Assembly: GCA_963702845.1 (NCBI GenBank)
Contig: OY969763.1
Span: 5,088,001-5,152,000 of the forward strand
Reading direction: 5' to 3'
From: an uncultured Verrucomicrobiae bacterium
GTDB taxonomy: Bacteria; Verrucomicrobiota; Verrucomicrobiia; Limisphaerales; Palsa-1400
Length of the DNA stretch: 64,000 nt
Numbering within the stretch: position 1 is the first letter of the stretch; every line of letters begins with the position of its first letter. Positions 14,790 to 53,389 of this stretch are shown piece after piece. Below the pieces are notes generated by a model that had not been told where the DNA came from, did no database searches, and saw nothing but the letters and a program-made list of their open reading frames with translations. The translations under genes and the position numbers were made by a program.

Positions 14790-14884
14790 CCACCTCTAGA
14801 CCCGTCCCGCCGTCCCAAGGGCCGTAAACATTGATGGTTTTTGAGGTTTGACCCGTCACGTGGGACGGGTCACAACCGTCACAC
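14790..14884 (+). repeat. Dispersed box element, copy A (CCGTCMC)
   Basis: Boxes at 14802, 14810, 14853 and 14876; inverted box at 14862; spacer contains GTAAACATTG. Confidence 0.75.
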
Positions 14885-14894
14885 ATGCCGCCAA

Positions 14895-15812
14895 TTAGGA
14901 TCGGGAGAAGCCGATTTGAATCTTGTTAGCTGCGCCGGAACTCAGGTCGTGGGCGAAAACGTAGTAATATGCGGTTCCGGCAAAGGGTAACACCGTCCAG
15001 GATAATTTACGGTAACCGGTATCCTTACAGCGATGACGCGCGGTAAAGGAAGTGGGCGCGCCGCGTTCGACTTGCATTAACGCCTTGCTGACGGTTTCCC
15101 AGTCTTCGTTGTGAACGACGGTAAGGATGCTCTTTTCTTTCAACTCATCTTCGATAAAGCCGACGTGATGTTCCCAAGCTGGATTAACGCAACGAAATAC
15201 GCCGGTTGGATCGATTACGGCCAGGGGTTGCGGTGAAAGCATGTAGAACGGATTCCCGCGGGTTTGGGCTTCTAACCGTTGATCCAAGCTTCCAAGAGCT
15301 GGATTTGAATTACCGAGGAGGTTAGTGATTTTTCGCGTCTGTTCCTCGATCGTTTTGGTTTTGCGATAAAGGTCGAGGAAAACGCCGATCTTTGTCCGCA
15401 ACACATCGGGGACGATGGGTGAAAAGATGTAATCCACCGCGCCCAACGAATAGCCGCGAGCAGTCAAATCATCGGTGTTGTGAACGCTGGTAATAAATAT
15501 GATCGGTGTGTGCGCACATTGGACGCGCTGACGAATCATGGCTGCGGTTTCGAAGCCGTCCATGCTAGGCATGAATACGTCCATCAGGATGACGGCGAAT
15601 TCATGCTGCAAAATTTCACGTAATGCGTCGCGGCCGGATTTGGCCAGGATGATAGTTTCACCCAAGGTTGAAAGTACGGATTCGAGCGCGACGAGTTTGT
15701 CTTCGCGATCGTCGACGATAAGGATCTTGGCGGGAATGTTCGGGTGCTGGGGCTGGATCAGGCGCTGGGCGCTCAAGGGGACGGGCGGTGCGTCGCGTAA
15801 TTCCTGGGTCAT
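14895..15812 (-). CDS. Response regulator with REC and PAS domains
   Basis: KILIVDD...ILMDVFMPSMDGFE...GAVDY receiver; C-terminal PAS (VNPAWE, VHNED, RHRCKDTGYRKLSW). Confidence 0.9.
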   Translation of the reverse strand: MTQELRDAPPVPLSAQRLIQPQHPNIPAKILIVDDREDKLVALESVLSTLGETIILAKSGRDALREILQHEFAVILMDVFMPSMDGFETAAMIRQRVQCAHTPIIFITSVHNTDDLTARGYSLGAVDYIFSPIVPDVLRTKIGVFLDLYRKTKTIEEQTRKITNLLGNSNPALGSLDQRLEAQTRGNPFYMLSPQPLAVIDPTGVFRCVNPAWEHHVGFIEDELKEKSILTVVHNEDWETVSKALMQVERGAPTSFTARHRCKDTGYRKLSWTVLPFAGTAYYYVFAHDLSSGAANKIQIGFSRS

Positions 15813-16147
15813 AGGGCTAACAGGGATGTTGTGGGGGTGAACGGCAGTTCTGTCGGGGCCAGCGGACCATTCGTCAGTGCGCCAGAACTCTTCAGATGTG
15901 CGCCGGAATAGTCAAACCGTTCGCCTGAACTATCCGGATGTGAGCCTGAATTATCAAGTTGTGCACCCGACCTGTCAGTGCGTGCGCCCAAAATGTCTAG
16001 ATGTGAGACCAACCTTTCCAGACGTGCGCCGGAACCGTCCGGGCGTGCGCCAATAACTTCCAGGCGCACCGCAAAAAGCTCCAAGGACACCCCCGTGACG
16101 TTCGTCCAAGCCTTTAATCTAGATTGTGTTACGTCAAATCGAGCCAT
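15809..16147 (-). CDS. Putative 112-aa heptad-repeat protein
   Basis: ATG lies 4 nt after the kinase stop, and its TGA overlaps the downstream ATG (ATGA). Encodes SGAxxxx-type heptads. Confidence 0.4.
   Translation of the reverse strand: MARFDVTQSRLKAWTNVTGVSLELFAVRLEVIGARPDGSGARLERLVSHLDILGARTDRSGAQLDNSGSHPDSSGERFDYSGAHLKSSGALTNGPLAPTELPFTPTTSLLAL
15877..16065. repeat. Degenerate 21-bp tandem array, 9 units
   Basis: GTGCGCC-type starts at 15877, 15898, 15919, 15940, 15961, 15982, 16003, 16024 and 16045. Confidence 0.85.
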
Positions 16148-16151
16148 AGGT

Positions 16152-19100
16152 CTACTTATGCAACCAGACATGCAGCACCGAGCGCAGGTGCTCGCGGTCG
16201 ACTGGTTTGGCAATGTAATCCGAAGCACCGGCGGCGATGCATTTTTCGCGGTCGCCTTTCATTGCTTTGGCGGTGACGGCGATAATCGGGAGCTCTTCGA
16301 ACCCGGCAATCTGCCGAATGGTGCGGATGGTTTCGTACCCGTCCATGGCCGGCAACATGATGTCCATGAGCACAATGTCGATCTCGTTCTTGTTCTTCAC
16401 AAGGATATCGATGGCGTCTTTGCCGGTTTCGGCCGAGAACACTTTCATTTCGAAACGTTCCAGCACGCTGGTCATCGCGAAGATGTTGCGGACGTCGTCG
16501 TCAACAACCAGCACGCGCTTGCCTTCGAGAATCGCGTGATGGAGCGATTGCAACATCTGACGTTGTTTGTCCGGCAACTTGGAAATATTGCGGTGCAGGA
16601 TGAGCGACGCCTTGTCGAGCAAGCGCTCAGGCGCGCGCGCGTCCTTGATGAGGATGGCTTCGGCCATGGTCTTGAGGTGCGCGTGTTGATCCTTGTGCAG
16701 CTCCATCGCGGTATAAACGAGGATCGGCACCTGATTCGATTCAGGCTTGTTCTTGATGGCTTCGAGTAACTGCATACCGGACATATCCGGCAGCTTGAGA
16801 TCGAGAATCATGCAGTCGTATTTATGCTTCTGCAGTTCTTCCAGGGCTTCTTTGCCCGTTTTCACCGCAGTAGTGTGGACGTCGCCGTTGCCAATCAACT
16901 CGCGGATGTTTTTGATCTGCACTTCGTCATCTTCCACAACGAGCAGGTTCTTGGTCGGGCGTTCGACGAACATTTTGATTTCGCTGAATGTCTTCTCCAG
17001 CGCCTCGCGCGTGTGCGTCTTGGTGAGGTAACCGAGCGCGCCTTGCATCAGTTCGGGCTGCAAATCCTCGCGAACACTGATTATCTGCACCGGAATATGG
17101 CGAGTGGTGAAATCGACTTTGAGTCGGCCCAGGACACGGCGGCCGTCGATGTCCGGCAAGCGCAGGTCGAGCGTGATCGCGTCGGGCTTGAGTTCGCGCG
17201 CGAGCGACAAAGCCGTCGCGCCGTGTGACGCGATAATGCCTTTGAAGCCTTTGCTGTGCGCCATTTCAAGCAGCAACGCGGCGTAATGCGGATCGTCTTC
17301 GACAATCAGCAATACGCGGTCGCCTTGATGTATTTGTGAACGATCATCGGCAACGCTGAAGTCGACCAATTCGGTGGCCGGTTCTTCCGCCTCAACAGGT
17401 GACAATACCGACATGCGATTGGACGCAGGCAATATCTGCGCCGGCACCACCGGGCCGATCGCGCTGCGTTTGACGGTGCGCATGGGAGCAGGAGTCACAG
17501 GCACGTAGAGTGTAAAGGTGCTGCCTTGGCCGACCGCGCTGGCCAAGCGAATTTCGCCGCCGAGTAGTCGCGCAATTTCGCGGCTGATGGCCAGACCGAG
17601 GCCCGTGCCGCCGTATTTGCGGCTCGTCGAACCGTCCGCCTGTTGGAATGCTTCGAAGATGAGTTGCTGTTTCTCCGGCGCGATACCGATACCGGTATCC
17701 GACACAGAGAATGCAATGACTTGACGCGCGCGATTGAGCGTTTCGCGGTCGGGGCTCCAACCTTCGGTCGCGTTGTTGATGCTGAAGGTGACCTGGCCTT
17801 TTTCGGTGAACTTGAACGCGTTGGAGAGCAGGTTGCGGATGACCTGTTCGAGGCGTTGCGAATCCGTTGTGATGAAACTCGGCAGGCCGGCGTCGAGATC
17901 CAGCTCAAGTTCGAGCTTTTTCGATTCGGCGACGTGGCGGAACGTGCGGTCCACGTAATCGCGCAAATCGGAGAAGCGGCGTTCGCCGATGTCGAGCGTG
18001 ACTGTTCCAGACTCGATCTTGGAGAGGTCGAGAATATCGTTGATGAGCGTGAGTAGGTCGTTGCCGGACGCATGAATCGTCTTGGCGTAATCGACTTGTT
18101 TGTGTGACAGGTTGCCTTCGTTGTTGCCGGCGAGAGAGTCGGCGAGAATGAGCAAGCTGTTGAGCGGCGTGCGCAGTTCGTGCGACATGTTCGCGAGGAA
18201 CTCTGATTTGTATTTGGAAGTAAGCGCGAGCTGTTCGGCTTTTTCTTCCAGCGCCTGGCGGGCTTGTTCGACTTCGCTGTTCTTGCGTTCGACTTCCGCG
18301 TTTTGTTCGGCGAGCAGTTTCGCTTTTTCCTGCAGTTCCTGGTTGGTGTTCTGCAGTTCTTCCTGGCGGCTCTGGAGTTCTTTGGCCAGCTTTTGCGATT
18401 GCTTGAGCAAATCTTCCGTTCTCGTATTGGCTTCAATCGTATTCAACACGATGCCGATGGATTCCATGAGCTGATCAAGGAACGCCTGGTGCGTCGGGCT
18501 GAATTGTTCGAAGGATGACAGTTCCATAACTGCCTTCACGCCGCCTTCAAATAGAATCGGCAGGACGATGATATTGGTCGGTGGCGCCTGGCCCAGACCC
18601 GAACCGATTTGGACATAGTCCGGTGGCGCTTTGGTGAGGAGGATGCGTTCCTTCTCGAGCGCAGCTTGTCCGACCAATCCTTCGCCAAGGGCAAACTTAT
18701 TGCCGACATGCTTGCGATTGCGGTAGGCGTAGCTGGCCAGCAGTTTGAGATAGGGCTCGCTGTGGTCTTCAGCGCCTTTAGGCTGTTCGTCCTTCGGAGT
18801 TTCAACGATGTAAAAAACGCCTTGTTGCGCGGAGACGACTTGTGCCAGTTCGGAGAGAATCAGTTTGCCGACGGTGAGCATGTCACGTTGGCCTTGCAAC
18901 ATACGAGTGAACTTCGCGAGGTTGGTCTTGAGCCAGTCTTGCTCGTTGTTCTTGATCGTCGTGTCCTTCAGATTGCGGATCATCTCGTTGATGTTGTCTT
19001 TCAACGAAGCGACTTCGCCGCTCGCATCGACTTGAATGGAACGGGTTAGATCGCCTTTTGTGACCGCCGTCGCGACTTCAGCGATGGAGCGGACCTGGGT

Positions 19101-22100
19101 CGTAAGATTTGCCGCGAGCTGATTGACGTTATCCGTGAGATCTTTCCACGTTCCCGCAGCGCCGGGCACTGAGGCCTGGCCGCCGAGTTTTCCTTCGACA
19201 CCGACTTCGCGCGCCACCGTCGTGACCTGGTCAGCGAACGTTGCGAGGGTGTCGATCATGCCGTTGATCGTGTCGGCGAGCGCGGCGATTTCGCCTTTCG
19301 CTTCGACGAGCAATTTGCGTTTGAGATCACCGTTCGCGACTGCCGTCACGACTTTCGCGATACCGCGCACCTGGTTCGTGAGGTTACCCGCCATGGAATT
19401 CACGTTATCAGTGAGATCTTTCCACGTGCCGCTGACACCTTTCACTTCGGCCTGGCCGCCGAGGATACCTTCGGTGCCGACTTCGCGCGCCACGCGAGTC
19501 ACCTCGGATGCGAAGGAGGAAAGTTGGTCCACCATCGTGTTGACAGTGTTTTTCAGTTCGAGAATTTCGCCTTTAACTTCGACCGTGATCTTCTTCGTCA
19601 AATCGCCATTCGCAACCGCCGTCGTGACCGTTGCAATGTTACGGACTTGAGACGTCAGGTTGGACGCCATGTAATTTACATTGTCGGTTAGATCCTTCCA
19701 CGTGCCGGCCAGACCGCGCACGTCAGCTTGACCACCGAGTTTTCCTTCGGTGCCGACTTCGCGGGCAACACGAGTCACTTCAGACGCAAATGAGCGAAGT
19801 TGGTCCACCATCGTGTTGATGGTGTCTTTGAGTTCGAGAATTTCGCCTTTGACGTCGACTGTGATTTTCTTGGAAAGGTCACCCGTCGCGACCGCCGTCG
19901 TCACGGCCGCGATGTTACGCACTTGAGCGGTGAGGTTGGACGCCATGGAGTTCACCGAGTCGGTGAGGTCCTTCCAGGTGCCGGCGACACCTTTGACGTT
20001 TGCTTGCACGCCGAGTTTACCTTCGGTGCCGACTTCGCGTGCGACGCGCGTCACTTCGACGGCGAACGAGGAAAGTTGGTCCACCATCGTGTTGACGGTG
20101 TTTTTTAGCTCCAGAATTTCGCCTTTAACGTCGACCGTAATCTTTTTGGAAAGGTCACCATTCGCCACGGCCGTCGTGACTGCCGCGATATTACGGACTT
20201 GAGACGTCAGGTTTGACGCCATGAAATTCACGTTGTCGGTAAGGTCTTTCCACGTGCCGGCTACACCGCGCACGTCCGCTTGACCGCCGAGTTTTCCTTC
20301 GGTGCCGACTTCACGCGCAACACGAGTCACTTCCGCCGCGAACGACCGGAGTTGGTCCACCATCGTATTGATGGTGATCTTCAGTTGGAGAATTTCGCCT
20401 TTGACGTCGACCGTGATTTTCTTGGAGAGGTCACCCGTCGCGACTGCCGTCGTCACGTCTGCAATGTTACGAACCTGTGCCGTGAGGTTACCGGCCATTG
20501 AGTTCACTGAGTCGGTGAGATCTTTCCACGTACCTGCGACGCCACGCACTTCTGCCTGGCCGCCAAGTTTACCTTCGGTGCCGACTTCGCGTGCGACACG
20601 AGTCACTTCCGCCGCGAAGGACGAGAGCTGGTCCACCATCGTGTTGATGGTGTTTTTGAGTTCCAAAATTTCACCTTTGACGTCGACCGTGATCTTCTTG
20701 GAGAGGTCGCCAGTCGCGACCGCCGTCGTCACTTCCGCAATGTTGCGGACCTGGCCAGTGAGGTTGGAGGCCATGGAATTCACCGAGTCGGTGAGGTCTT
20801 TCCACGTACCGGCGACGCCTTTCACATTCGCCTGGCCGCCGAGTTTACCTTCGGTACCGACTTCGCGTGCGACACGAGTCACTTCCGCAGCGAAAGACGA
20901 AAGCTGGTCCACCATCGTGTTGACCGTGTTTTTCAGTTCCAAAATTTCGCCTTTGACGTCGACGGTGATTTTCTTGGTCAGGTCACCGTTCGCGACCGCC
21001 GTCGTCACCGCCGCGATGTTACGGACTTGGGACGTGAGGTTGCCGGCCATCGAGTTCACGTTATCCGTGAGGTCTTTCCACGTGCCTGCGACGCCTTTGA
21101 CGTAGGCTTGCCCGCCGAGAATGCCTTCGGTGCCCACTTCGCGCGCGACGCGCGTTACTTCAGATGCGAACGAGGAAAGCTGATCAACCAGTGTGTTGAT
21201 TGTGTTTTTGAGTTGGAGAATTTCACCTTTGACATCGACAGTAATTTTCTTGGAAAGGTCACCGCTCGCAATCGCCGTCGTGACGTCAGCGATGTTACGG
21301 ACCTGAGAGGTCAGGTTACCGGCCATTGAGTTCACTGAATCGGTGAGGTCCTTCCACGTTCCCGCGACGCCTTTGACGTCCGCCTGACCACCGAGTTTTC
21401 CTTCGGTGCCGACTTCGCGCGCGACACGAGTCACTTCCGCAGCGAAGGATGAAAGTTGATCCACCATCGTGTTGACAGTGTTTTTCAGCTCAAGAATTTC
21501 ACCTTTAACGTCGACCGTAATTTTCTTGGAAAGGTCACCGTTCGCGACCGCCGTCGTGACCGCCGCGATGTTACGGACTTGAGACGTCAGGTTGGACGCC
21601 ATGAAATTCACTGAGTCGGTAAGGTCTTTCCAGGTTCCAGAAACACCTTCGACTTTCGCCTGACCGCCGAGGATACCTTCGGTACCGACTTCGCGCGCCA
21701 CGCGCGTCACTTCAGACGCGAACGAACGGAGCTGACCCACCATCGTATTAATGGTGTCTTTGAGTTCCAAGAATTCGCCTTTGACGTCGACCGTGATTTT
21801 CTTGGTCAAGTCGCCATTCGCCACCGCCGTCGTCACCGTCGCGATGTTACGCACCTGGGACGTGAGGTTCGAGGCCATCAGATTGACGTTATCAGTAAGG
21901 TCCTTCCATGTGCCGGCGACGCCTTTAACTTTCGCCTGACCGCCGAGTTTACCTTCGGTGCCGACTTCGCGCGCCACGCGCGTCACTTCAGAGGCGAACG
22001 CCGAGAGTTGGTCCACCATCGTATTGACCGTGCGCGCGGTGCGGGAAAATTCACCCTCGAGTTTGCGGCCTTCGATATCGACGGCCATCGTTTGCGAAAG

Positions 22101-22445
22101 GTCACCTTTCGCGACGGCGCCGATAACGCGCGCCGTTTCGGAAATCGGGTGGGCCAAGCAGTTGATCAGCGTGTTTACGGAATCAACGCGTTGCGCCCAT
22201 TCACCGGTCACGTGACCGGTGGCAAGACGTTCATTAATTTTTCCTTCGTGACCGATGAGGCGGCTGATGCGGTTCAAGTCGCGCGTGGATTGCGACATAA
22301 TATCTGCAACGTCGTTGAAAGCTTCAGCGACTTTGCCGCCGACGCCGATCCAGTGGACGGGCAAGCGCACCGAGAAATCGCCCCGTTTAAAGGCGGTCAG
22401 CACGGAAAGTAATTGGCGATGATCAATGTCTTCAGCGGCAACCAT
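16152..22445 (-). CDS. Cytoplasmic poly-HAMP hybrid histidine kinase (HAMP array-GAF-HisKA-HATPase-3xREC)
   Basis: Eleven 92-aa [10 protein letters not shown] repeats, [11 protein letters not shown]-box, NAFKFT and GGTGLGL boxes, three receiver domains, no TM helix. The true start may be at 22630 with a frameshift. Confidence 0.93.
18978..22013 (-). repeat. Intragenic 276-bp tandem repeat x11 (HAMP array)
   Basis: Eleven 92-codon units counted in the translation; units differ mostly at synonymous positions. Confidence 0.95.
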
Positions 22446-22910
22446 GGCGGCGACGGCACGGGTGCGATCGCCTTGCCATTATGATTAGCACCGGCGCCGT
22501 TTGAGGCAGTGCGTGTACGGCCATTGGTGGATGGCGAATTGATGGTGGAGGAATCGACTTTTTGTTGAAGAGGAGCCTTAGCAGGTCCGAGGGGCTTCTT
22601 CCCATTTTTGGTCGTAAGTGAATTTGGCATATTCGAGGTACAGTTCTGCGACTGCTAAGTATTCAGCAACCGGGCGCTGAAAAATATCCGGCAGGTCACG
22701 ACCTGTTGATTGGTAAATTCCCTGAATTCGAGACTCAGGCTAACACCGAGGCGGCGCGAGGGTTTGCATTGCAACTCAGGAACTCAACCAATGCGAAGTC
22801 CGCAATTCGAAGCAGTGTTCGCGATTTAGCCAGAGATGGCTTCCCTCATACGTTAGCAAAACGGCGAAAGGTTGCTTTGCTCTGGGTCACGCCTTAGAGT
22901 CTTTTACGAT

Positions 22911-23411
22911 ATGGGTCAGCGACGTGAAGCGCGCGAACGCGCAGTCCAATTTTTGTTTCAGCACGACCTCAATCCACCCGCAAAGATGGATGAGGCGCTC
23001 GACCATTTTTGGGAGACGCAACGGGCGCCGGCGATCGCTGAGGAAAAAGGCCCGGCGACCTGGGGTCAGAAAACAGAAATGCCGCCCATCACCGCTGAAG
23101 AAACAGGGACCCGCTTGTTCGCCGATAAACTGATTCGCGGCGTAATCGAACATCGTGACGCTGTTGACGCAAAGATCAAAGAACACGCGGAGAATTGGGA
23201 CATGCATCGAATGGCGGTGGTCGACCGTAATATTTTGCGCCTCGCCATTTACGAAATGCTTTACCGCGACGACATCCCGCCAGTCGTGAGCATTAACGAA
23301 GCGGTCGATATCGCGAAGAGATTTTCCACACAGGACAGCGGGAAGTTCGTCAATGGAATCCTCGACAAAGTAAAAGGCGAGCTGATGCGGCCGGCTCGAA
23401 TCGTAAAATAG
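22911..23411 (+). CDS. nusB: Transcription antitermination factor NusB
   Basis: [35 protein letters not shown] and FVNGILD. Confidence 0.96.
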
Positions 23412-23415
23412 CCGC

Positions 23416-24249
23416 ATGTTCGCCGACCTGCATCTTCACACGAATTTTTCTGACGGCACGTTCACGCCGGAAGAAGCGGCCGAACGCGGCCACAAGGCAG
23501 GGCTCGCCGCGATGTCATTGACGGATCACGACACGGTGGAAGGTTGCGCGCGCATGGCGGCGGCCTGTGCGGCGCACGGGATGCGTTTTATTAGCGGCAC
23601 AGAACTGACCGCTGAATTGGAAGGCAACGAGCTTCATCTGCTTGGATATTTTATCGATATCGAAAACCCCACCTTGCTCGGTGAGATGAAGAAGTATCAG
23701 AGCGTTCGCCAAAGCCGCATTCACGAGATGGTAAAAAAGTTGAATGAGCTGAACATTCCCTTGCGCGCCGAAACGGTTTTTCAAGTCGCCAACTGCCAGT
23801 CCCCCGGACGGCCGCATGTGGGTCGAGCGCTCGTGCAGGAAGGTTATTGCGCGAATATGGACGAGGCGTTCGATCGATTTTTGAAAAAGCATCGTCCGGC
23901 ATTTGTGCCGAAGATGCGCGTCTCCGCTTTGGACGCGATCGAGCTGATTCACAATGCCGGCGGGCTCGCGGTCATGGCTCATCCTGGTTTGAATCGAACC
24001 GACGAATTGATCCCGCGACTTGTTGATCAAGGTTTGGACGGCATTGAGTGTTATCACACCAAACACTCGCCTTCGACGAGCCAACATTATTTGAAAATTG
24101 CTGCCCAATATAATTTATTAGTAACGGGCGGTTCGGATTGCCACGGTTACAGCAAAGGCAAGCCGCTCATCGGCACGGTGAAGTTGTCAGGCGAGCATTT
24201 GGAAAAACTTATTGCTGCCCACGAAGCGCGGAAAAATCCGCGCCGGTAG
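23416..24249 (+). CDS. PHP domain phosphoesterase (TrpH/YciV-like)
   Basis: DLHLHTNFSDG, TDHD, GRPH, AHP and TGGSDCHG. Confidence 0.9.
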   Translation: MFADLHLHTNFSDGTFTPEEAAERGHKAGLAAMSLTDHDTVEGCARMAAACAAHGMRFISGTELTAELEGNELHLLGYFIDIENPTLLGEMKKYQSVRQSRIHEMVKKLNELNIPLRAETVFQVANCQSPGRPHVGRALVQEGYCANMDEAFDRFLKKHRPAFVPKMRVSALDAIELIHNAGGLAVMAHPGLNRTDELIPRLVDQGLDGIECYHTKHSPSTSQHYLKIAAQYNLLVTGGSDCHGYSKGKPLIGTVKLSGEHLEKLIAAHEARKNPRR

Positions 24250-24267
24250 CACCTCAAGGTCATCGGC

Positions 24268-25191: not shown

Positions 25192-25213
25192 AACATGCGT
25201 CTCTGCGTTTGAA

Positions 25214-26347: not shown

Positions 26348-26348
26348 T

Positions 26349-31010: not shown

Positions 31011-31078
31011 ACGCGGCTCGCTAGAGTTAAAATCCGTATTTCATCTCGGTCTCATCCGTGACTAAACTCCAGCGAACA

Positions 31079-34094: not shown

Positions 34095-34178
34095 TGGTGC
34101 GCGAGAGAGGACTTGAACCTCCACCCCTTACGGGACCAGATCCTAAGTCTGGCGTGTCTGCCATTTCACCACTCGCGC
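34095..34178 (-). tRNA. tRNA-Leu (anticodon TAG)
   Basis: Reverse complement: GCGCGAG acceptor, TGGCAGACA D-loop, CCAGA-CTTAGGA-TCTGG anticodon arm, long variable arm, GGTTCAAGTCC, encoded CCA. Confidence 0.97.
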
Positions 34179-34220: not shown

Positions 34221-34333
34221 GGAGGGGAAAGAAAAGGTATTCAGTTCAGTCCGTTTGATCTCGTTTACTACGGTTGGGTGCGGTTTACTGCGGATAGCTG
34301 TGGGAGTGAACGTGACGACGGGGGAGACCCCCA

Positions 34334-34445
34334 CCCTTCCCGGGGTGTACAGCCGTTACATCGTTACAACCCTTGTAAACATTGGTGATTTTTTCGTTTT
34401 TACCCGTTACAAAAGCCGTTACAGACCCTCTGCGGAGGCGTAACA
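34334..34445 (+). repeat. Dispersed box element, copy B (CCGTTAC)
   Basis: Boxes at 34353, 34361, 34404 and 34416; leader CCCTTCCCGGGGTGTACAG; spacer contains GTAAACATTG. Confidence 0.75.
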
Positions 34446-34454
34446 AAATCAAAC

Positions 34455-41232: not shown

Positions 41233-41347
41233 CCTCGCGCTGAACAGAGCGAACATGATTTATGTCAAACAATAAACAGCCAGCAGTTCGTCTAATTTAC
41301 AGAGTGTTTCCTGTGGATTTTTGATGAACAGCAATTAAGATTTTTTT

Positions 41348-42745: not shown

Positions 42746-42755
42746 ATCCCCGCGA

Positions 42756-43046: not shown

Positions 43047-43056
43047 AATAAGTTGA

Positions 43057-44582: not shown

Positions 44583-44615
44583 AAAATCGGTCAGTTACAA
44601 AATCGAATCAATTTT

Positions 44616-46895
44616 TTAATCGCGCACCGGCTTCTTCGCCAGATAAAGCTGGCGATGCTGTTGAATTCCGGCCTGAACCTCTTTCGCGCCGGCAGCGTCG
44701 GCAATCCGAATCCCCTGCTCCGCCGTCTTCACCGCTTCGTCGAAACGCCCGGTTTCCGCGTATGCCGCTGACAGCGTATCCAGCGCATCGGCACTGTTGG
44801 TTTGCGTCAGCATGACCGCGCGCGACGCCAGCGCAACCGCATCGACGCCGCTGCGAACGCTGTCATCTTTCGCCGTGGCCAATAACCACGCTGCATTGTT
44901 GAGAGCGGTAATCCAATTTGATTTCAGTCGGACCGCTTGCTGATAATGCGCCAGCGCCTCGCGCACCTGGCCTCGCGACGAAAGATAAACGGCGAGTTGA
45001 TAGTGTGGCTCAGCGTAATTGGGCTGCAGTTCGATCGCCTTCGAATAATGCACTGCCGCTTCATTAGCCTTGTTCAATTTCAGCAACATGTTTGCAAGGT
45101 GGTAATGGACGGCGGGATCCTTCGGTTCAAGTTCCAACGCGCTGCGATACTCTGCTTCGGCTCGCGGAAATTTATTCTGTGACTCAAGCACGTGCGCGAG
45201 TTCGCGATGAGCCGGTACCGACACCGGCAAAAATTTCATTGCCTGCGAATACGCTTCCTCGGCTTCCGCGAATTTCGATTCCTGTGCCAGCACGCGTCCG
45301 AGCCAGAGGTAAGCCAAGGTATATTGCGGCCAAACCTTGATCGCTTTGCGATACTCCGCTTCCGCTTCCGCGAACATGTGTTCCTGATGCAAAATGAAAC
45401 CAAGATTGTAATAACCAAGCGCGTCGTTTGGCGTTTGTTGCGCCTGTTTGAATTCCGCTTTGCCTTCGTCAACTCGACCGAGCGCGATTAATGCCGACCC
45501 GGTGTTCACGCGCGCTTCAACATTATCCGGCCGCAGACGCAGCGACTCTTTGTAATGCTCAATAGCTTCCTCCAAGAGGGGCTTGTCAGATGGCGAACTG
45601 CGCATGGCCCGCTGCATCACTTCGAGACCATAGCTGTTATGCGCGAGCCAACAGGTGGGATTCCGCGCGATTGTGTCGCGCCAGATAATTTCCGCGCTCT
45701 GATATAAGTGCGATTGTTGCCACGCGAGAAATGCGAATCCGCCAATCACTGCGATCGCGATACAGTTAATCACAGCCTGCACCCGCGCGATCGACACAAG
45801 TGCCGCCGAGGCCAAGGCGATCGGACCAATGATCGCGAAATACTGCCAATGGTCCGCGACCAGTGAATATTTCTGATAGTAAATACTCACGAACCCAAGC
45901 ACCGGCAGTAGCATCAAAACAAAATATCCGAACGCCAAAACCACGCCGCGCAACCGCTCACGCCAACGCCATATCGCCACCGCTACTACCATGAACGCCA
46001 CCAGCGGCAACCACGTCAAAATATGGTCGGGTGCGATGTCCCAACGTGGATAAACAAAAACGAGATTGAACGGGATGAACGTCTTGTAGATGTAAAACCA
46101 CAATCCCCAACCAGCCGTCGCCAGTCTCGCTGCCATGCTGCTCGTCTGAACTTCTTCAATTCCAATGACGCGATGCTTCTGGAACCAGAGCGTAATCAGC
46201 CCGAAAATAAACGAGAGTGCGAAATACGGTCCGATCCGCACCAAGTGTTGTCGGTAGGCCGAGGCTCCTGCCGGGCCTTCACCAGAAACGTGTTCACGAG
46301 TTCTGCCCTGCCACCAATCGACCAGCAACAATACAAACGGCAACGGCACGACTGCCGTTTTGCTCAACAACGCCAGTGCGAAACTGACCAGCGACAGCAT
46401 GTAATATTTTATGTTCCCGTTCCGCGCCTTCGATTTGAGATAAAACAAAATCGTCGCAAGGAAAAAGGGCATCGCCAACGCGTTTTTGCGCTGACTAATC
46501 CACGCCACCGATTCCACGTTCACCGGGTGGACCGCAAACAACATCGCTGCGAGCCAAGCGCCGGGAACTTTCAACGCACGCAACACGCGCCAGAGCAAAA
46601 TCGCGCTGATCGCGTGCAGCAACACGTTCGTCACGTGATATCCGAACATGTTGTCGCCCCAAAACCTGTATTCCAGCCACAGCGAACTGAACGTCAGCGG
46701 AAAATAATCCGGCGTCATCGCCTTGCACCAGATATAGAAAAGGCCCGCGGGCGATTGCACGAGCGCATTGAACATGATCTCGTCGTCGAGAATTTTTCCG
46801 CCATGCAAGCTCGGCAGATAAATCAAAAACGTAATCGCGACCAGGGCGAGTGCCTGCAAAAAGATGCGAAGCGCGGGCGGTGGCGATTGCGACAT
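44616..46895 (-). CDS. TMTC-like membrane glycosyltransferase with TPR tail
   Basis: DD motif after TM1, YFPLT, HVTNVLLH, FAVHPVNVESVAWISQRK, VADHWQY and C-terminal TPRs. Confidence 0.85.
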   Translation of the reverse strand: MSQSPPPALRIFLQALALVAITFLIYLPSLHGGKILDDEIMFNALVQSPAGLFYIWCKAMTPDYFPLTFSSLWLEYRFWGDNMFGYHVTNVLLHAISAILLWRVLRALKVPGAWLAAMLFAVHPVNVESVAWISQRKNALAMPFFLATILFYLKSKARNGNIKYYMLSLVSFALALLSKTAVVPLPFVLLLVDWWQGRTREHVSGEGPAGASAYRQHLVRIGPYFALSFIFGLITLWFQKHRVIGIEEVQTSSMAARLATAGWGLWFYIYKTFIPFNLVFVYPRWDIAPDHILTWLPLVAFMVVAVAIWRWRERLRGVVLAFGYFVLMLLPVLGFVSIYYQKYSLVADHWQYFAIIGPIALASAALVSIARVQAVINCIAIAVIGGFAFLAWQQSHLYQSAEIIWRDTIARNPTCWLAHNSYGLEVMQRAMRSSPSDKPLLEEAIEHYKESLRLRPDNVEARVNTGSALIALGRVDEGKAEFKQAQQTPNDALGYYNLGFILHQEHMFAEAEAEYRKAIKVWPQYTLAYLWLGRVLAQESKFAEAEEAYSQAMKFLPVSVPAHRELAHVLESQNKFPRAEAEYRSALELEPKDPAVHYHLANMLLKLNKANEAAVHYSKAIELQPNYAEPHYQLAVYLSSRGQVREALAHYQQAVRLKSNWITALNNAAWLLATAKDDSVRSGVDAVALASRAVMLTQTNSADALDTLSAAYAETGRFDEAVKTAEQGIRIADAAGAKEVQAGIQQHRQLYLAKKPVRD

Positions 46896-46997
46896 TGTTC
46901 GTGGAGCAGCCAAGGTCCGAATAAGGTATGTAGAATCAGTCGTCGCCTCAATAGCGCAACGCCGCAATCAAACCGAGACGCGCGTCTCAGTTGTCCC

Positions 46998-48380
46998 TCA
47001 AGCCCCCAAACTCTTCCGTATCTCGCAACCAATCTGCTCGTTCCAATGTTCCAACACCGCGCGCTCGCGTCCCTCCAGCAACAGGCGAATCTTCGCTTCC
47101 GTCCCCGAATACCGCAACAACACCCGCCCGCCCTGCGGTTTCAGATCCGTTTCGGCTTTCGCCACCAAAGCCATCACTTCGCCAAGCTCTTCAATCGGTT
47201 TCCTCTCGCGCACCTTAATATTCGTGAGAATCTGCGGGTAACGCGTCCAACACGCCGCGAGCTCTGACAATTTCTTGCCCGTTTTCTTCATCACTCGCAA
47301 AACCTGCAGCGCCGCAATCAAACCATCGCCAGTCGTGCTGAAGTCGCGGAAAATAATGTGCCCACTCTGCTCGCCGCCGACGTAAAAATCATTCTTCAAC
47401 ATCTCCGCAATGACATGTTGGTCGCCCACCGGCGTACGCACGATGTGTCCACCAGCGTTCTTGAATGCCACATCCAGGCCGGCATTCGTCATCACCGTTC
47501 CGACGATCGTATTCTTCGGCAACGCATTTGCGGCCAGCCGTTCCAGGCCGATGATTGCGATAATATCATCACCATCGATCACCTCCCCGCGTTCATCGCA
47601 GAGCAGCACCCGATCCGCATCACCGTCGTGCGCGATGCCAATGTCCGCTTTGTTCTCACGTACCATCCGGGAAAGCTGCTCCGGATGCATCGAGCCGCAG
47701 TCCTTATTGATATTGAGACCGTCCGGTTGATTCCCGTAAACGATCGTCTGCGCACCGAGCTCGCGCAAAACGCACGGCGTCGATTTGTAACCCGCACCAT
47801 GCGCGCAATCGACCACGATCCGCACCCCATCCAGAGTCATGTTCCGCGGCAACGAACTCTTCGCGTATTCGATGTAACGCCCCAGCGCATCATCAATACG
47901 CACAGCCTTGCCGATCTCGCGCGTCGACGGACGAATGTTCTCAATCTCACCGCTGAACACCAACTCTTCGATGCGCGCTTCGATCGCGTCGTCCAGCTTA
48001 TAACCGTCCGCGTGGAAAAATTTGATCCCGTTATCGTCGTAAGGATTGTGCGAAGCCGTGATAACGATACCGGCGTCCGCGCGCAGGCTCCGCGTCACAT
48101 AAGCAACACCGGGCGTCGGCAGCGGTCCGATGAACAATACATCCACACCCATCGAAAGAATCCCCGACGAAAGCGCATTTTCCAGCATGTAGCCGGAGAG
48201 ACGCGTGTCCTTGCCGATGACGATCTTGTGTTTGCCTTGCCCGCGCGATTTGCTTTCGTGGTTCTTGAACACGTGCGCGGCCGCGCGGCCCAATTTCAGG
48301 GCGGTTTCAGCCGTGACCGGCTCAATATTTGCCGTGCCACGAACGCCGTCGGTTCCGAAAATTCTTCTTTGGGTCTTCAT
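46998..48380 (-). CDS. glmM: Phosphoglucosamine mutase
   Basis: FGTDGVRG, ITASHNP, DGDADR, GGEQSGH and RYSGTE. Confidence 0.95.
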   Translation of the reverse strand: MKTQRRIFGTDGVRGTANIEPVTAETALKLGRAAAHVFKNHESKSRGQGKHKIVIGKDTRLSGYMLENALSSGILSMGVDVLFIGPLPTPGVAYVTRSLRADAGIVITASHNPYDDNGIKFFHADGYKLDDAIEARIEELVFSGEIENIRPSTREIGKAVRIDDALGRYIEYAKSSLPRNMTLDGVRIVVDCAHGAGYKSTPCVLRELGAQTIVYGNQPDGLNINKDCGSMHPEQLSRMVRENKADIGIAHDGDADRVLLCDERGEVIDGDDIIAIIGLERLAANALPKNTIVGTVMTNAGLDVAFKNAGGHIVRTPVGDQHVIAEMLKNDFYVGGEQSGHIIFRDFSTTGDGLIAALQVLRVMKKTGKKLSELAACWTRYPQILTNIKVRERKPIEELGEVMALVAKAETDLKPQGGRVLLRYSGTEAKIRLLLEGRERAVLEHWNEQIGCEIRKSLGA

Positions 48381-48469
48381 CCAGGCAAGCTGTTCCTCCA
48401 CTCAACTAAAGCGCCGAAATTCTAACCCAAAGACGCCAAGAAGCAAATCTGCAAACACCCTGATTTTAC

Positions 48470-48493
48470 GGAGTGCGGACGTTCACGTCCGCA
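48470..48493. repeat. REP-like palindrome
   Basis: GGAG-TGCGGACG-TTCA-CGTCCGCA. Confidence 0.55.
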
Positions 48494-48506
48494 GCAATGT
48501 CGAAAT

Positions 48507-48536
48507 AAAAAAGCGGCTGAAGTAACTCAGCCGCTT
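48507..48536 (-). terminator. Intrinsic terminator
   Basis: Stem AAGCGGCTGA/TCAGCCGCTT with an A-run; lies after the 48556 gene. Confidence 0.75.
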
Positions 48537-48555
48537 GCGACAACCTGCTTATCTA

Positions 48556-48924
48556 TCAGGCCCGCCCCATCAAAGGAGGCTTCGTCGCCTTATTCCGCAT
48601 CTTCGTAAAGACCGCCAAGTTGAAGAAGTGCATCGCTCCTAAAACTAGAAGCACCACACCAACCTTCGTGCTCAACGCCTCCACGGCCTCTTGCGCATTC
48701 GCCGCCGCCGCGCCGTATTTCAACGCCAACGTCACGTAACCGATGTTGATCAAATAAAATCCAACAACCAGCAAGTGATTCACCGAATCCGCCAATCCTT
48801 CGTTGCCGTGAAAGGCATCGACCAGAAAGATGCGTCCGTTCTTGTGCAACGTGCGCGCGACCCAGACGGTCAGAGCAACGCTGATGATCAAATAAACCAC
48901 GTAAGTGAGAAGCAGCCAGTTCAT
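48556..48924 (-). CDS. Conserved-looking 3-TM membrane protein
   Basis: TVWVARTLHKNGRIFL...LADSVNHLLVVGFYL...MHFFNL. Confidence 0.8.
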   Translation of the reverse strand: MNWLLLTYVVYLIISVALTVWVARTLHKNGRIFLVDAFHGNEGLADSVNHLLVVGFYLINIGYVTLALKYGAAAANAQEAVEALSTKVGVVLLVLGAMHFFNLAVFTKMRNKATKPPLMGRA

Positions 48925-48955
48925 AGCAGATCCTTTCTGTTGTTGTATTCAGTTG

Positions 48956-49002
48956 TTTCTGTCATTACAGAAATAAAATAACAGATTGGCCGTTTGTGGC
49001 AA
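48956..49002 (-). promoter_or_regulatory. Putative promoter with a palindromic operator
   Basis: Minus-strand TTGCCA-N16-TATTTT, immediately followed by the palindrome TTTCTGT-N4-ACAGAAA (48956-48973). Confidence 0.5.
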
Positions 49003-49016
49003 GCACAATTTTCGTG

Positions 49017-49083
49017 TGGAGTTCCGCCTTTAGGCGGTCCGCGTGGCAGATACAGCGACGGAACCGCCTAAGGAGGGACTCCA
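49017..49083. repeat. REP-like inverted doublet (CCGCCT-TT/AA-AGGCGG)
   Basis: TGGAGTTCCGCCTTTAGGCGGTCC and a degenerate inverse copy; a third copy lies at 52323-52346. Confidence 0.7.
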
Positions 49084-49100
49084 TAGGCGTTCCATCTGGT

Positions 49101-49128
49101 TTGACAAGCGCCCTCGCTGACATAAGAT
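49101..49128 (+). promoter_or_regulatory. Sigma70-like promoter for sufB
   Basis: TTGACA-N16-TAAGAT. Confidence 0.5.
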
Positions 49129-49156
49129 GCTTAAGCGGACAATTTTTGTCCTGATT

Positions 49157-50602
49157 ATGCCCACAGCCACAGAGACCATCGAAAATTTCGTCAATACCGA
49201 GTACAAATACGGCTTCAGCAGCGACATCGAAACCGAAGCCTTTTTACCCGGCTTGAACGAAGATACCGTTCGCCGCATTTCCGACAAAAAGAACGAACCC
49301 GAATTTCTCCGCGAATGGCGCCTCAAAGCCTTTCGTCATTGGCTCACGATGGAAGAGCCGCATTGGCCGAATGCGCACTATCCCGCGATCGACTACCAGG
49401 GCTATATCTATTATGCCGTGCCCAAGCCGAAGAAGAAACTCGATAGCCTCGACCAGGTCGATCCCGACGTTCTCGAGATGTTCGACAAACTCGGCATTTC
49501 TCTCGACGAACAAAAGCGCCTGAGCGGTGTCGCTGTCGATGCCATCATGGACAGCGCCAGCGTTGCCACGACGTTCCGCAAAGAGCTCGCTGAAAAAGGC
49601 ATTATTTTCTGCAGCTTCAGCGAAGCCGTCCGCGAACATCCCGAACTCATCAAAAAATATCTCGGCACAGTCGTCCCGCCGAATGACAACTTTTACGCCG
49701 CGCTCAACAGCGCCGTGTTCAGCGACGGCTCCTTCTGCTACATCCCCAAGGGCGTCCGTTGCCCGATGGAGCTTTCGACCTATTTCCGCATCAACACCGC
49801 CGGTGCCGGCCAATTCGAACGCACCCTCATCATCGCCGACGAAGGCAGCTACGTCAGCTACCTCGAAGGTTGCACCGCCCCGATGCGCGACGAAAATCAG
49901 CTCCACGCCGCCGTCGTCGAACTCATCGCGATGGAAGGCGCCGAGATCAAATACTCTACCGTCCAAAACTGGTATCCCGGCGACAAAGAAGGCAAGGGCG
50001 GCATCTACAATTTCGTGACCAAGCGCGGCAAATGCGCCGGTCGCAATTCCAAGATTTCCTGGACCCAGGTCGAAACCGGCTCCGCCATCACTTGGAAATA
50101 TCCGAGCGTGCTCCTGATTGGCGACAACAGCGTCGGCGAATTCTATTCCGTCGCGTTGACCAACCACATGCAGCAGGCCGACACCGGCACCAAAATGATC
50201 CACATCGGCAAGAACACCAGCAGCACGATCGTCTCCAAAGGAATCAGCGCTGGCAAAGGCCAGAACAGCTATCGCGGCCTCGTCAAAATCATGAAGAGCG
50301 CCGAGAACGCCCGCAATTACAGCCAATGCGATTCGTTGCTCCTGGGTGACAAATGCGGCGCGCACACTTTCCCCTACATCGAAGTTCGCAACACCAGTTC
50401 GACTGTCGAACACGAAGCCTCGACCTCCAAGATCGGTGAAGATCAGATCTTCTATTGCAACCAGCGCGGCATTCCGACCCAGGACGCCGTCAACATGATC
50501 GTCAACGGCTACTGCAAAGAAGTGTTTAAACACCTCCCGATGGAATTCGCCGTTGAAGCGCAGAAACTTCTGGGCGTGAGCCTCGAAGGTTCCGTCGGCT
50601 AA
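49157..50602 (+). CDS. sufB: Fe-S cluster assembly protein SufB
   Basis: [41 protein letters not shown] and LPMEFAVE...LEGSVG. Confidence 0.97.
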
Positions 50603-50940
50603 GCGGAACGTCCGCCTCGCTTTAAAACGGCGCGCGCCGAATCCCCACTTAACATTTCGTTAAGCGCGACGGCACATCGTGCTCGCGTTCATGTCCATTT
50701 CCTCGTCCCTGCCCGACCGGCGTCTCTAAGTCACATCAGGGCAAAGCAACTGCGCCCTGAACAATGACTCCTAGAACAGCTTACGAAAGCGCATGACCCA
50801 CCCACCCACCAAACCCTGAAACCAAAACACTACCATTTGTTGTAATATGCTTAACATCAAAGATATTCGCACAGGATATTTTCACAAAAAACACCTTGAA
50901 TACTCGCCTTTCTGAACGAATCTAAAGCCCAGTTAAATCC

Positions 50941-51711
50941 ATGCCCCGAATTTTAATCCTAGCTGCTTTACTAATCGCGAACGTCACCGTCATGGCTGAT
51001 CGCGCGGATCAAGCCCCTTTACCGCCGCTCGAAACAATCATCAAAAACGCCATCGAGCACTCCAAAAAGGAACCCGAAAACGATCGCCTATTTCAACAGC
51101 GTTACGAATTCATCCGCACCAAGTGCACCGAATACCGCAACGGCGATGGCGAACTCACCAGGCGCGACCAAAAAACAAACATCAATCACGTTCGCATCGC
51201 ATCCGCGACTGTCGCCGCCAAGCCGAAACCCACGCCCGTTCGCGCTCCGAAGGTCGAATCAAAAACCATGCCCTCGGACCGCATCGACAAAAAAGATATT
51301 CTGCTCAACGAAGATTTGTTCAGCCGATTCCAATTCAATTTGATCGGGCGCGAGCAAGTCGCTGGTCGCACCGCCCTCGTTCTCGATTTCAAACCGGCCA
51401 ACAAAAAACTGCCCAACAACAATTTCAAAGATCGCTTCATCAACATCGCCGCCGGGCGTCTTTGGGTAGACGAAGAAGATTCCGCCCTTGTCAAAGCCAG
51501 CCTACACCTCACCGAGAAGGTCAGCGTGATCGGCGGCATTGTCGGCGCCATCGGCAAATTCAACTGCACTGTCGACCGCGAACGCACAACGGACGGCCTT
51601 TGGTTCACCAGCGCGATGGACTGGCATCTCGAAGGCCGCGTCGCCCTCGCCCATCGCACTATCGATTACCACGAAGAAAAAACCGGCGTGCAGAATAAAG
51701 CGGCGCGCTAA
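50941..51711 (+). CDS. Secreted hypothetical beta-rich protein
   Basis: Signal peptide and GREQVAGRTALVLDFKP...AGRLWVDEED pattern, reminiscent of LolA-like/sorting folds. Confidence 0.75.
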   Translation: MPRILILAALLIANVTVMADRADQAPLPPLETIIKNAIEHSKKEPENDRLFQQRYEFIRTKCTEYRNGDGELTRRDQKTNINHVRIASATVAAKPKPTPVRAPKVESKTMPSDRIDKKDILLNEDLFSRFQFNLIGREQVAGRTALVLDFKPANKKLPNNNFKDRFINIAAGRLWVDEEDSALVKASLHLTEKVSVIGGIVGAIGKFNCTVDRERTTDGLWFTSAMDWHLEGRVALAHRTIDYHEEKTGVQNKAAR

Positions 51712-52521
51712 GGTCTCGCGATCTTACGCGGTCCGTGCATAAAAAGTTCGAAGGAAAGTCGCGCATTGCCGCACATTGTCCCGCTTGTGTGTGAAGTCAG
51801 TTGCACATTTTATAGTTAAAGCACGGCATGGCACCATTGAAAGTTGCACATTTTGTAGATGGCATTCGGCGAAGCGGAATCGTGGAAGATTTTTTAGCTT
51901 GGGTGATATTTGGTGATATTTACTGATATTTTTTCCGCAGGAACGGCCGGCGACTCGGCGCATGGCTGATCGCGGATGCTGTCGAGTTCGCATTACACCC
52001 GCTGCCATCTGGTGACATCTAGTTACCTCTGGTGACATGCGCAGCCGGTTGATGGTTGAGGGGCCTGAAATAAAAACGAGGCGCAACCAGAAGTCCAGGC
52101 TCCCACAGCCGCGATTGACCGAAACGCTGCGGGCGCAATCCACCGGAAAATAATTCTTTTTTTAAACCGATATTAACCGGCACAGGTCGATACGAAGCGG
52201 CACCCGCACGCTGACCTCGGATGCCATGCGGGCACACGAGTGGCGTGATTGGCATCCCTTCATCCCGGATCATATTTCGTCCGGCGCCGCTCATAGTCGG
52301 TTTGGCATTTGAGCCTTCAAGAGACCGCCTAAAGGCGGGACTCTATACCGATTGAGAAATGAAGCGGCGGCTCGTCAATTCACTTCATTATTTATAATGC
52401 AGATGAATGCCTGGAAATCTCACTCGCGATCACCGGAGAATCACAGTCGCAACACGATCCCCAAGGTAACAACCTCCAAAGGGTGGACCTGCTTCCAGAC
52501 CCCCAACTATCCTCTACCAAT

Positions 52522-52620
52522 GTTTCGGTTTTGTTTGCCGCGCCGACGCGACGCAAACAAAACCAAACCAATTATCAAACCTCTTCCGATTCTATAAATA
52601 TGTCACCCCTGACGGGGCTC
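52522..52620 (+). repeat. ~100-bp element, left copy of an inverted pair
   Basis: TTTTGTTTGC..GCAAACAAAA hairpin plus TTCTATAAATATGTCACCCCTGACGGGGCTC. Confidence 0.8.
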
Positions 52621-52768
52621 GTTAAAACGCCTCAAACGAAGTTTCACTTTTTGTCCCATCGTAGTTTTAGCGAAGGTGGATCGCGAAGCGGCGACGAAGG
52701 AGTCCGAACGACGGCTTCTGCTGGCGTTCAGCGATGGAACTTTTCCCAACGGGCGGGTTTACCAAAAC

Positions 52769-53215
52769 ATGAGACTGCATTGGTCCGCGTTCATAGCATG
52801 CGCTGCCATTTCTACGTGTTGTTTGGCGAAGGAAGCGATTGGGCCAAAGCATCCATATTCATCAATTCCGCAGAGGAATGTTTTTGCGCTGAACATGTAT
52901 CTGCCGCCGGAGCCGGTGTGCGGGAGCAAGCCCGTTTGTCCGCTAAATATTTCGGGGTTTGTAAAACGAGGTGACGAAAGCACGCGGGTTTTATTGGCGT
53001 CGCGGCCGAAAGAGCCAAAGGAAGCGATGAGGTTTTACAAATTAAGCGAAGGGGAGACTGATGACGGGGTGAAGGTTGTCAGGATTGGCTCGAAACAGGA
53101 ATCAGTGGAGTTGTTGGTGGACGGAGAGCCGGTGGTTTTGACGGTGCGGAGCAATAGTTTTGCGGTTGGGAAGCAGGGGTTGGGCGAGGTACCTTCCCTA
53201 ACTGCGATTCGTTAA
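52769..53215 (+). CDS. Secreted hypothetical protein, possibly GspC/PilP-like
   Basis: Signal-like N-terminus, PYSSIPQRNVFAL, LNISG and LSEGETDDGVKVVRI. Confidence 0.6.
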   Translation: MRLHWSAFIACAAISTCCLAKEAIGPKHPYSSIPQRNVFALNMYLPPEPVCGSKPVCPLNISGFVKRGDESTRVLLASRPKEPKEAMRFYKLSEGETDDGVKVVRIGSKQESVELLVDGEPVVLTVRSNSFAVGKQGLGEVPSLTAIR

Positions 53216-53289
53216 AACGCCACAAACGGCGGTTCACTTCCTGTCCCGCCCCGCGTGGATCGCGGCGGAGGCGACGCATGGTTCATCCC

Positions 53290-53389
53290 CCCTTCCAGGG
53301 GTGTAGAGCCGTCAGGCCGTCAGGAATGTTGATGGTCAACGCGTTGGATTGGAATCCAGCCGTCAGGCTGACGGCAGGCACCCGTCAGG
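53290..53389 (+). repeat. Dispersed box element, copy C (CCGTCAG)
   Basis: Boxes at 53309, 53317, 53360 and 53382; inverted box at 53368; leader is 21/23 identical to copy B. Confidence 0.75.

Follow-up and report, generated by a model that had tools for sequence, protein, structure and literature searches.

What three short intergenic loci are doing in an ordinary stretch of verrucomicrobial chromosome is the question raised by the DNA analyzed here, a window of 64,000 nucleotides (G000:C1:5088001-5152000) from the single-contig genome G000 (6.03 Mb, 54% GC). A sequence-only reading of this window had noticed that the three loci share two short boxes 8 bp apart and a third box 43 bp further on, and had suggested a protein-binding platform, with an iteron-type origin as its first-named option. 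Genome scanning, nhmmer searches, and alignment show that the shared layout is real and lies far beyond chance. The loci belong to a dispersed repeat family with a fixed geometry, which is restricted to one taxonomic family of bacteria and is repeatedly found next to genes for RepAM (DUF3631) initiators, proteins that group, in sequence comparison, by box type. We give a probability of roughly 0.7 to the reading that the window loci are orphan copies of a putative iteron-type origin module that serves RepAM initiators on small mobile elements.

The three copies in the window are as follows.

14778..14882, + strand: copy A, CCGTCCC/CCGTCAC subfamily (nhmmer E=2e-19; alignment)
34325..34446, + strand: copy B, CCGTTAC boxes (nhmmer E=6e-32; alignment)
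53285..53390, + strand: copy C, CCGTCAG boxes (nhmmer E=1e-30; alignment)

A three-way alignment reveals homology over ~120 bp, beyond the boxes alone. Copy A has a C-rich leader, CCGTCCC boxes at 14802 and 14810, a T-tract spacer, and a CCGTCAC box at 14853, followed by an inverted GGGACGG (14862-14868) and a fourth box, CCGTCAC, at 14876. Copy B opens with the leader CCCACCCTTCCCGGGG and carries CCGTTAC at 34353, TCGTTAC at 34361, CCGTTAC at 34404 and 34416, and a last CGTAAC at ~34436-34441, with a small hairpin, CCTCTGCGGAGG, between the box at 34416 and the last one. The leader of copy C is CCCCTTCCAGGGG; its CCGTCAG boxes lie at 53309, 53317, and 53360, an inverted CTGACGG follows at 53368 and a further CCGTCAG at 53382, and the spacer holds an IHF (integration host factor)-like sequence, TCAACGCGTTG. 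The positions of these boxes, the inverted boxes of A and C, and the presence of further boxes had all been read correctly from the sequence. The accompanying claim that the box is homogeneous within each locus holds for C and largely for the other two: the second box of B is TCGTTAC rather than CCGTTAC, and A mixes CCC with CAC boxes, a mixture that the consensus proposed earlier (CCGTCMC) already permitted. The stretch GTAAACATTG, noted as common to the spacers of A and B, and the leader noted as common to B and C are indeed shared, and both are features of the repeat family.

Seen across the family, the repeat unit is ~125 bp long. It begins with a leader that is C-rich or consists of a C-run and a G-run, continues with box1 and box2 8 bp apart and a 36-bp spacer, and reaches box3 at +51, with further boxes beyond. 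The box word is CCGTNA(C/G) or CCGTCCC, often stretching to 8 bp (CCGTCACA, CCGTCAGG), and each copy has four to six boxes, three or four of them beyond the spacer. In 59 copies aligned from G000 and two genomes of the same genus, the core from box1 to box3 is free of gaps, and the invariant columns are limited to the boxes' CGT cores and a few bases beside them. Boxes within each of these copies are largely uniform; mixed copies are found (CAC with CCC, TAC with AAC), and uniformity is thus strong and not absolute. Downstream of box3 the arrangement depends on the type. Type B and most copies from other genera have later boxes at ~+63 and ~+85, sometimes with a degenerate box between them, and types A and C have an inverted box directly 3' of box3. 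Immediately past the last box, homology stops abruptly. The direct repeats persist from genus to genus; neither the inverted box nor the hairpins do. Precise deletions between boxes are seen in two copies, and half copies are also present.

Four box types occur in G000 (CCGTCAG, CCGTTAC, CCGTC(A/C)C, and CCGTGAC), each one base off CCGTCAC in all or most boxes of a copy. Other genera use the same geometry with other words: CCGTAAC, CCGTTAG, CCGTCAC, CCGTGAC, and CCGT(C/A/T)AGG. The spacer appears in two forms. In types A and B it contains phased T-tracts, and in type C and most copies from other genera it contains a match to the IHF consensus core, TCAANNNNTT(A/G). The earlier remark that 43 bp corresponds to about four helical turns fits the distance between box2 and box3, with the addition that the spacer itself, through an IHF-like site or phased T-tracts, also seems to matter.

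To count copies, an nhmmer profile was seeded with 12 of them and used at a cut-off of E<1e-3. G000 gave 32 matches, corresponding to ~30 copies, three of which are those in the window; by a crude gene map based on open reading frames (ORFs), all 32 are intergenic. A scan of the whole genome for any exactly repeated 7-mer in the pattern X-N1-X-N36-X, a check that the sequence-only reading had asked for, returned 19 raw matches at 11 loci, every one in the repeat family. Copies B and C are among them, and copy A was missed because its third box differs. Clusters of at least three boxes at the 8/43 spacing are likewise confined in G000 to the repeat family. The flanking genes, genome-wide, are unrelated housekeeping genes. 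Among 31 placed copies, 10 lie between convergent, 16 between co-directional, and 5 between divergent genes; in 20 of the 31, the element has a gene's 3' end opposite its own 3' end, often at <100 bp, and the distance to the downstream gene ranges from 38 to 446 bp. No bias with respect to replication strand was seen, 17 of 31 copies having one orientation relative to an origin guessed from GC skew.

BLAST detected the repeat family only within the genus. The sequence-only covariance model R1, made from those 59 copies, has matches in 20 of the 31 genomes that represent the taxonomic family and in 9 of its 10 genera, with up to 42-49 matches in any one genome. Under stricter filters, R1 had no match at E<=1e-5 in 119 other genomes of the class, with G000 and the same-family genome G010 set aside; G010 itself has no R1 match. 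When a genome collection was scanned with the pattern, ~37 of 80 among the matches listed came from metagenome-assembled genomes (MAGs) of Verrucomicrobiota/Limisphaerales, several per MAG, and the remaining listed matches were mostly scattered across many phyla.

Within the family, one copy in genome G006 lies 219 bp upstream of a DUF3631 gene. DUF3631 (PF12307) is the family of RepAM, the replication initiator of pMEA300, according to the excerpted source (PMC3218068). DUF3631 genes are present in 16 of the 31 genomes of the family, and an R1 match (E<1e-3) falls within 1.5 kb of 11 of the 27 loci examined, against a rough expectation of an R1 match in ~2% of random 3.5-kb stretches. Eight of these 11, from seven genomes and five genera, are full copies with five or six boxes, on the strand of the gene and ~90-520 bp upstream of it; the distances rest on estimated RepAM start codons. 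At two more loci an inverted pair lies directly 3' of the domain, in open frames of 833-843 aa. This adjacency of complete copies to initiator genes supports the iteron-type origin suggested at the outset. The neighbours of the RepAM gene at two loci are toxin-antitoxin and other accessory genes, and no integrase was found within ~7 kb of the two RepAM loci examined. At the G038, G040, and G005 loci, a conserved palindrome, TGGACAGC(C/A)TTTGTCCA (GGACAGC-N-TTTGTCC), lies between the element and the RepAM start and is a candidate operator for another regulator.

The initiator proteins also vary with the box. Pairwise identities among four proteins show that the CAC-box proteins of G040 and G006, from different genera, are 76% identical, and that identity is 82% for the TAG-box pair from G038 and G040. 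In comparison, the two paralogues of G040, one next to CAC boxes and the other next to TAG boxes, are 63% identical, and the TAG-box protein of G038 and the CAC-box protein of G006 are 64% identical. By these identities the proteins group by box type and not by genome, which agrees with the proposal of a binding platform whose box sequence goes with its partner protein. The verrucomicrobial RepAM-like protein has a GKTT P-loop and a Walker-B-like motif, LLIDEADT. A structure model made from a six-sequence alignment has a mean predicted local distance difference test (pLDDT) score of 45 and is usable for residues ~355-445 alone; in this C-terminal part, helices followed by a β-hairpin are predicted. 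A sequence search of the PDB with this protein found no match at E<=1.

The note's statement that its author knew of no described element matching this is not supported. The repeat is best read as a RepAM-type initiator-binding origin module, and not as a categorically new system. Excerpts of the literature describe how purified RepAM binds multiple identical 8-bp repeats in a putative origin that is located at the 3' end of its gene, repAM (te Poele et al. 2006 via PMC2440964), and how actinomycete integrative conjugative elements of the pMEA300 type each have their own repeat word (PMC2440964). Shared with this described case are the Pfam family of the initiator, the short repeats next to or in the initiator gene, and a repeat word per lineage. 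In Staphylococcus aureus pathogenicity islands (SaPIs) and phage-inducible chromosomal islands (PICIs), as excerpted, the C-terminal winged-helix domain of Rep reads iterons of 5-6 nt, 6-12 of which lie by rep in two sets around an AT-rich center, with an island-specific sequence (PMC9371898). These origins, also a described match of a kind, resemble the verrucomicrobial repeat in having short iterons next to the initiator gene, two sets around a center, and an element-specific word. They differ in their helicase family, in iterons that are opposed on the two sides, and in an origin located just 3' of rep; the excerpted account gives one origin per island and no dispersed orphan copies. For iteron plasmids, the excerpted sources state that extra iteron arrays cause incompatibility by titration and handcuffing (PMC6090056, PMC5397158). 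The likeness here is that initiator-binding arrays away from the initiator gene are able to act in trans, and the difference is that plasmid iterons are 17-22 bp long and located on the replicon itself.

IHF sites and AT-rich stretches are known to accompany iterons. With such sites in mind, we can outline how the verrucomicrobial module would work. RepAM would read the boxes of 7-8 bp, probably through its C-terminal winged-helix-like part, and the spacer would bend by way of its IHF-like site or phased T-tracts. Bending would bring boxes 1-2 near boxes 3-5, where DNA opening would start, and the module would serve as the origin, and perhaps also as an operator, of small RepAM-based mobile elements. 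Since no initiator gene is near the window copies, they would act in trans only, with a matching RepAM in the cell. Our best guess, by analogy with the extra iteron arrays of iteron plasmids, is that the orphans would sequester or pair with the initiator; they would otherwise act as secondary origins, or they could be decaying relics. At site B, which is occupied in both G000 and its congener G002, identity is 85% over the element, with 0 gaps, and 55% over the adjacent spacer, with 18 gap columns. This one locus points to constraint on the element and speaks mildly against pure decay of the orphans.

Primase genes were another place to look for copies, as the sequence-only reading had advised, and look-alike sites do abut phage primase genes. 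Public viral contigs scanned for the box geometry, which gave the decisive lead, yielded 26 loci, and the loci with concordant boxes sort into five groups. Four of these (12 of 13 loci) have the site ~10-170 bp from the 3' end of a gene for a DNA primase or primase-helicase; the fifth has it in a tail-gene module.

Several observations weigh against the identification of the window loci as RepAM origin modules. The viral sites match the profile weakly (E 2e-5 to 0.02), and the loci were chosen by the box pattern itself; therefore they may be look-alikes, not relatives. The viral primases are unrelated to RepAM, and a search of the 31 family genomes found no match to viral primase V2 and only distant D5-like matches to viral primase V1. 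No element was found near the D5-like primase genes at two G000 loci or at those of four relatives. On the initiator side, 16 of the 27 DUF3631 loci have no copy. The single full-length RepAM-like gene of G000, which encodes 588 aa and has its domain split, is at ~5.752 Mb, ~610 kb from copy C and ~610 kb or more from every window copy. A RepAM fragment (182 aa) is at 4.496 Mb, and neither of the two has a copy within 1.5 kb. With four box types and a single full-length RepAM-like gene in G000, most copies are therefore without a visible partner. The comparison with pMEA300 also has limits. Its repeats, in the excerpted description, lie inside the 3' end of repAM and form a hairpin that has a pC194-like nick motif, whereas the verrucomicrobial repeat is mostly ~90-520 bp upstream of the gene, is mainly direct, and has no conserved hairpin. 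In place of a stable hairpin of the pMEA300 type we found only local hairpins in some subfamilies, and no search was made for a motif like the nick site. The boxes are moreover split, two and then three or four, around a bendable spacer of 25-36 bp, and tens of gene-less copies per genome are spread across a bacterial family, both unlike pMEA300. Lastly, there are the dynamics of the family. Of the 15 sites for which both flanks could be mapped, just 2 carry a copy in G000 and also in a congener, the tree of B-type copies is star-like without genome-specific clades, and copies do not cluster by genome. Copy similarity between and within genomes is 0.82 versus 0.83, 0.87 versus 0.89, and 0.79 versus 0.80.

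The surroundings of the copies add detail. Around them the window is ordinary core chromosome, with purB-, ispH-, nusB-, ftsY-, ribD-, mla-, glnE-, sufB-, and rnc-like genes, and, as the earlier reading had it, no Rep, integrase, or transposase gene adjoins any of the three. Copy A follows closely on the 3' end of a response-regulator gene, copy B sits between a porin gene's terminator and a tRNA-Leu gene, and copy C is inside a 2.4-kb stretch without Pfam matches. Two further features belong with A and B.

14619..14777, + strand: run of short repeats phased at ~10 bp, 5' of copy A (repeat scan; comparison with G002)
34095..34178, - strand: tRNA-Leu gene adjoining copy B, outside the element (kept promoter in a relative without the element)

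The empty-site comparison proposed earlier could be carried out in part: sites without a copy exist in relatives, and exact junctions are illegible because the intergenic DNA is too diverged. Copy A and the repeat run upstream of it, together 275 bp, are absent from the same-genus genome G002 at the matching site, and copy B is missing in the congener G001. The likely promoter of the tRNA-Leu gene, TTGATT-N17-TACTCT, lies close to the gene and is retained in a relative without copy B. No target duplication or exact junction could be read at the A site, at three sites with a copy solely in a relative, or at three others, where the DNA has diverged. Around copy C, positions 51700-54100 form an accessory stretch without Pfam matches, of which G002 lacks 51700-52823 at the matching site. 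A 76-aa ORF there (MKLTKPPVAPLAKGQLWKLDD...; window 53490-53720, - strand) converges on copy C and has no Pfam match; its DNA is ~82% identical to a G002 contig, and a partial paralogue is found at G000 5538077-5538272.

Runs of short repeats with a period of ~10 bp are found <=300 bp upstream of 10 of the 32 matches and downstream of 2 of the 32; there are 153 such intergenic runs in G000. Each consists of a 6-nt core and a 4-nt linker, and the core varies by locus (CTGTAT, CGTTTA, TGCAAT, GTGACC, and others). Those in the window span 14619-14777 and 34236-34330. The spacing of ~19 kb between the window copies is no rule of the family. In G000, five pairs of neighbouring copies with the same orientation are 18-25 kb apart, and G033 has two such pairs at ~21 kb (contigs C174 and C211); the near-complete relative G016 has no such neighbour pairs, its closest being ~70 kb apart or more, apart from one pair at 0.7 kb. 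A periodicity of 19-20 kb is probably the result of chance and local gene orientation.

Some copies are embedded in longer shared sequence. Two CCGTGAC-type copies (G000 4348379-4348453 and 4373530-4373668), 25 kb apart in the same orientation, have ~366 bp in common at 80% identity, well past the element on both sides, and a tyrosine-recombinase fragment and a tRNA-Arg gene lie just outside the pair. A 252-bp unit (91%), in which the element is joined by a 5' hairpin module and a 3' terminator, is common to the type-C copies at G000 3433928 and 4566257; the element therefore travels in larger mosaic units. The RepAM fragment of G000 falls in a region (4496149-4505106) where it lies 4-9 kb from three type-A copies, together with DUF4041 and T5orf172/MUG113 genes; this region may be a decayed mobile element. 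Elsewhere, a gene for a repetitive extragenic palindromic (REP)-associated tyrosine transposase (RAYT, a Y1 transposase; L049 2530-3300, G000 3188617-3189390) with its own REP hairpins, GCAACCTCTTCGAGGTTGC, is located 420 bp from a type-C copy and has an apparent pseudouridine-synthase gene fragment on its 3' side.

A dispersed intergenic repeat invites explanations that do not involve an origin. One is that the repeat is a selfish miniature mobile element, of the kind represented by REPs, miniature inverted-repeat transposable elements, or the interspersed mosaic elements of bacteria (BIMEs); the boxes would then be transposase or recombinase sites and the proximity to RepAM genes an insertion preference. 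The many dispersed intergenic copies, with truncated and internally deleted forms among them, would fit such an element, as would the 13 of 15 mapped sites that are unshared among congeners, the A and B sites that are each empty in one relative, and the same-orientation tandem composites of congeners (A then B, A then C). Copies favour the 3' ends of genes (10 convergent versus 5 divergent; 20 of 31 with a converging 3' gene end), which is REP-like by the excerpted account (PMC3733652). That account describes REPs, BIMEs, and REPINs, including REPs with a CGTC tag, as dispersed, intergenic, mostly downstream of genes, mosaic, and lineage-specific, and the CGTC-tagged ones as having no dedicated enzyme (PMC3733652); the verrucomicrobial repeat is similar in all of these traits and, like CGTC-tagged REPs in this account, is without a dedicated enzyme. 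The structure is different: REPs in the excerpt are hairpin palindromes of 20-40 bp, whereas the present repeat is ~125 bp, mostly non-palindromic, and built of direct boxes at fixed spacing. Neither a 20-40-bp palindrome with a GTAG or CGTC tag nor a RAYT gene flanked by the element was found. The alignments show no terminal inverted repeats, there is no target duplication at legible junctions, which are blurred by divergence, and no transposase consistently adjoins the copies. Boxes flank none of the seven Y1 transposase genes, and the single RAYT close to a copy has REP hairpins of its own; of three rve genes in all, none adjoins a copy; and a Tn7/Mu-type transposase (C-terminal domain) was not found by a search that was also silent in control genomes. 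An insertion preference leaves the grouping of initiator proteins by box type unexplained. We regard a selfish element as quite unlikely, and an autonomous transposon found no support.

The recombination-site and packaging-site options found none either. If the repeat were an integron-type attI or an integrase arm-site platform, its direct repeats with an inverted copy, its IHF-like site, and its sharp 3' boundary after the last box would all be expected features. An adjacent intI and a GTTRRRY crossover box at a cassette boundary were not found, however. Searches of G000, G001, and G002 gave no integron integrase above the curated cut-off, no integrase of any kind was found within ~7 kb of the two RepAM loci, and the integron of a family relative uses canonical GCCTAAC...GTTAGGC sites. 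The last box has no conserved GTT (types A and C have GTC there, and B has GTA or GTT), there is no long attC-like hairpin, and another dispersed repeat found in G000 is unrelated in sequence and has no CCGT boxes, all of which makes a site-specific recombination site highly improbable. As to packaging, the small terminase PF03592 has no match in G000. We are similarly disinclined to see in the repeat a small non-coding RNA, a cis-regulatory RNA, or a promoter element, which we take to be very improbable. Copy C folds better than its shuffles (z -3.1 and -4.0), and copies are often placed after a terminator and before the following gene; A and B show no folding advantage over their shuffles, however, and a match to an Rfam family, which the earlier reading had named as a finding that would count against it, was absent both at the gathering threshold and at E<=1. 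The inverted box and the hairpins are lost across genera while the direct repeats persist, the three copies and their surroundings gave no sigma-70-like promoter, the tRNA-Leu promoter is retained in a relative that lacks the element, and the distance to the downstream gene (38 to 446 bp) varies.

A further idea concerns what the host may gain from orphan modules. They could be decoy origins kept by the host, which would titrate or handcuff RepAM proteins arriving with satellites, integrative elements, or phages. We consider this doubtful. If it were true, the orphans would be built-in incompatibility determinants, a protein-free form of defence with several specificities spread over the chromosome, and the switching of boxes would be the trace of an arms race between initiator and decoy.

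Overall, what is new about this repeat is its adjacency to RepAM genes, the grouping of proteins and boxes, and the look-alike viral sites that adjoin primase genes; the literature searched holds no chromosome-wide set of orphan iteron arrays with several specificities. Origins are normally one-to-one with their replicon. Here, the putative module has left its initiator gene and is present in tens of copies per genome throughout a bacterial family, with several box "dialects" in one genome. The pairs of initiator and site that have accumulated form a natural series in which a change of specificity in a winged-helix-type initiator could be studied. For annotation, the family explains a common and puzzling intergenic repeat of Limisphaerales-type Verrucomicrobiota, and for the biology of these bacteria it raises the question of whether origins without genes may affect how mobile elements, or the surrounding chromosome, replicate.

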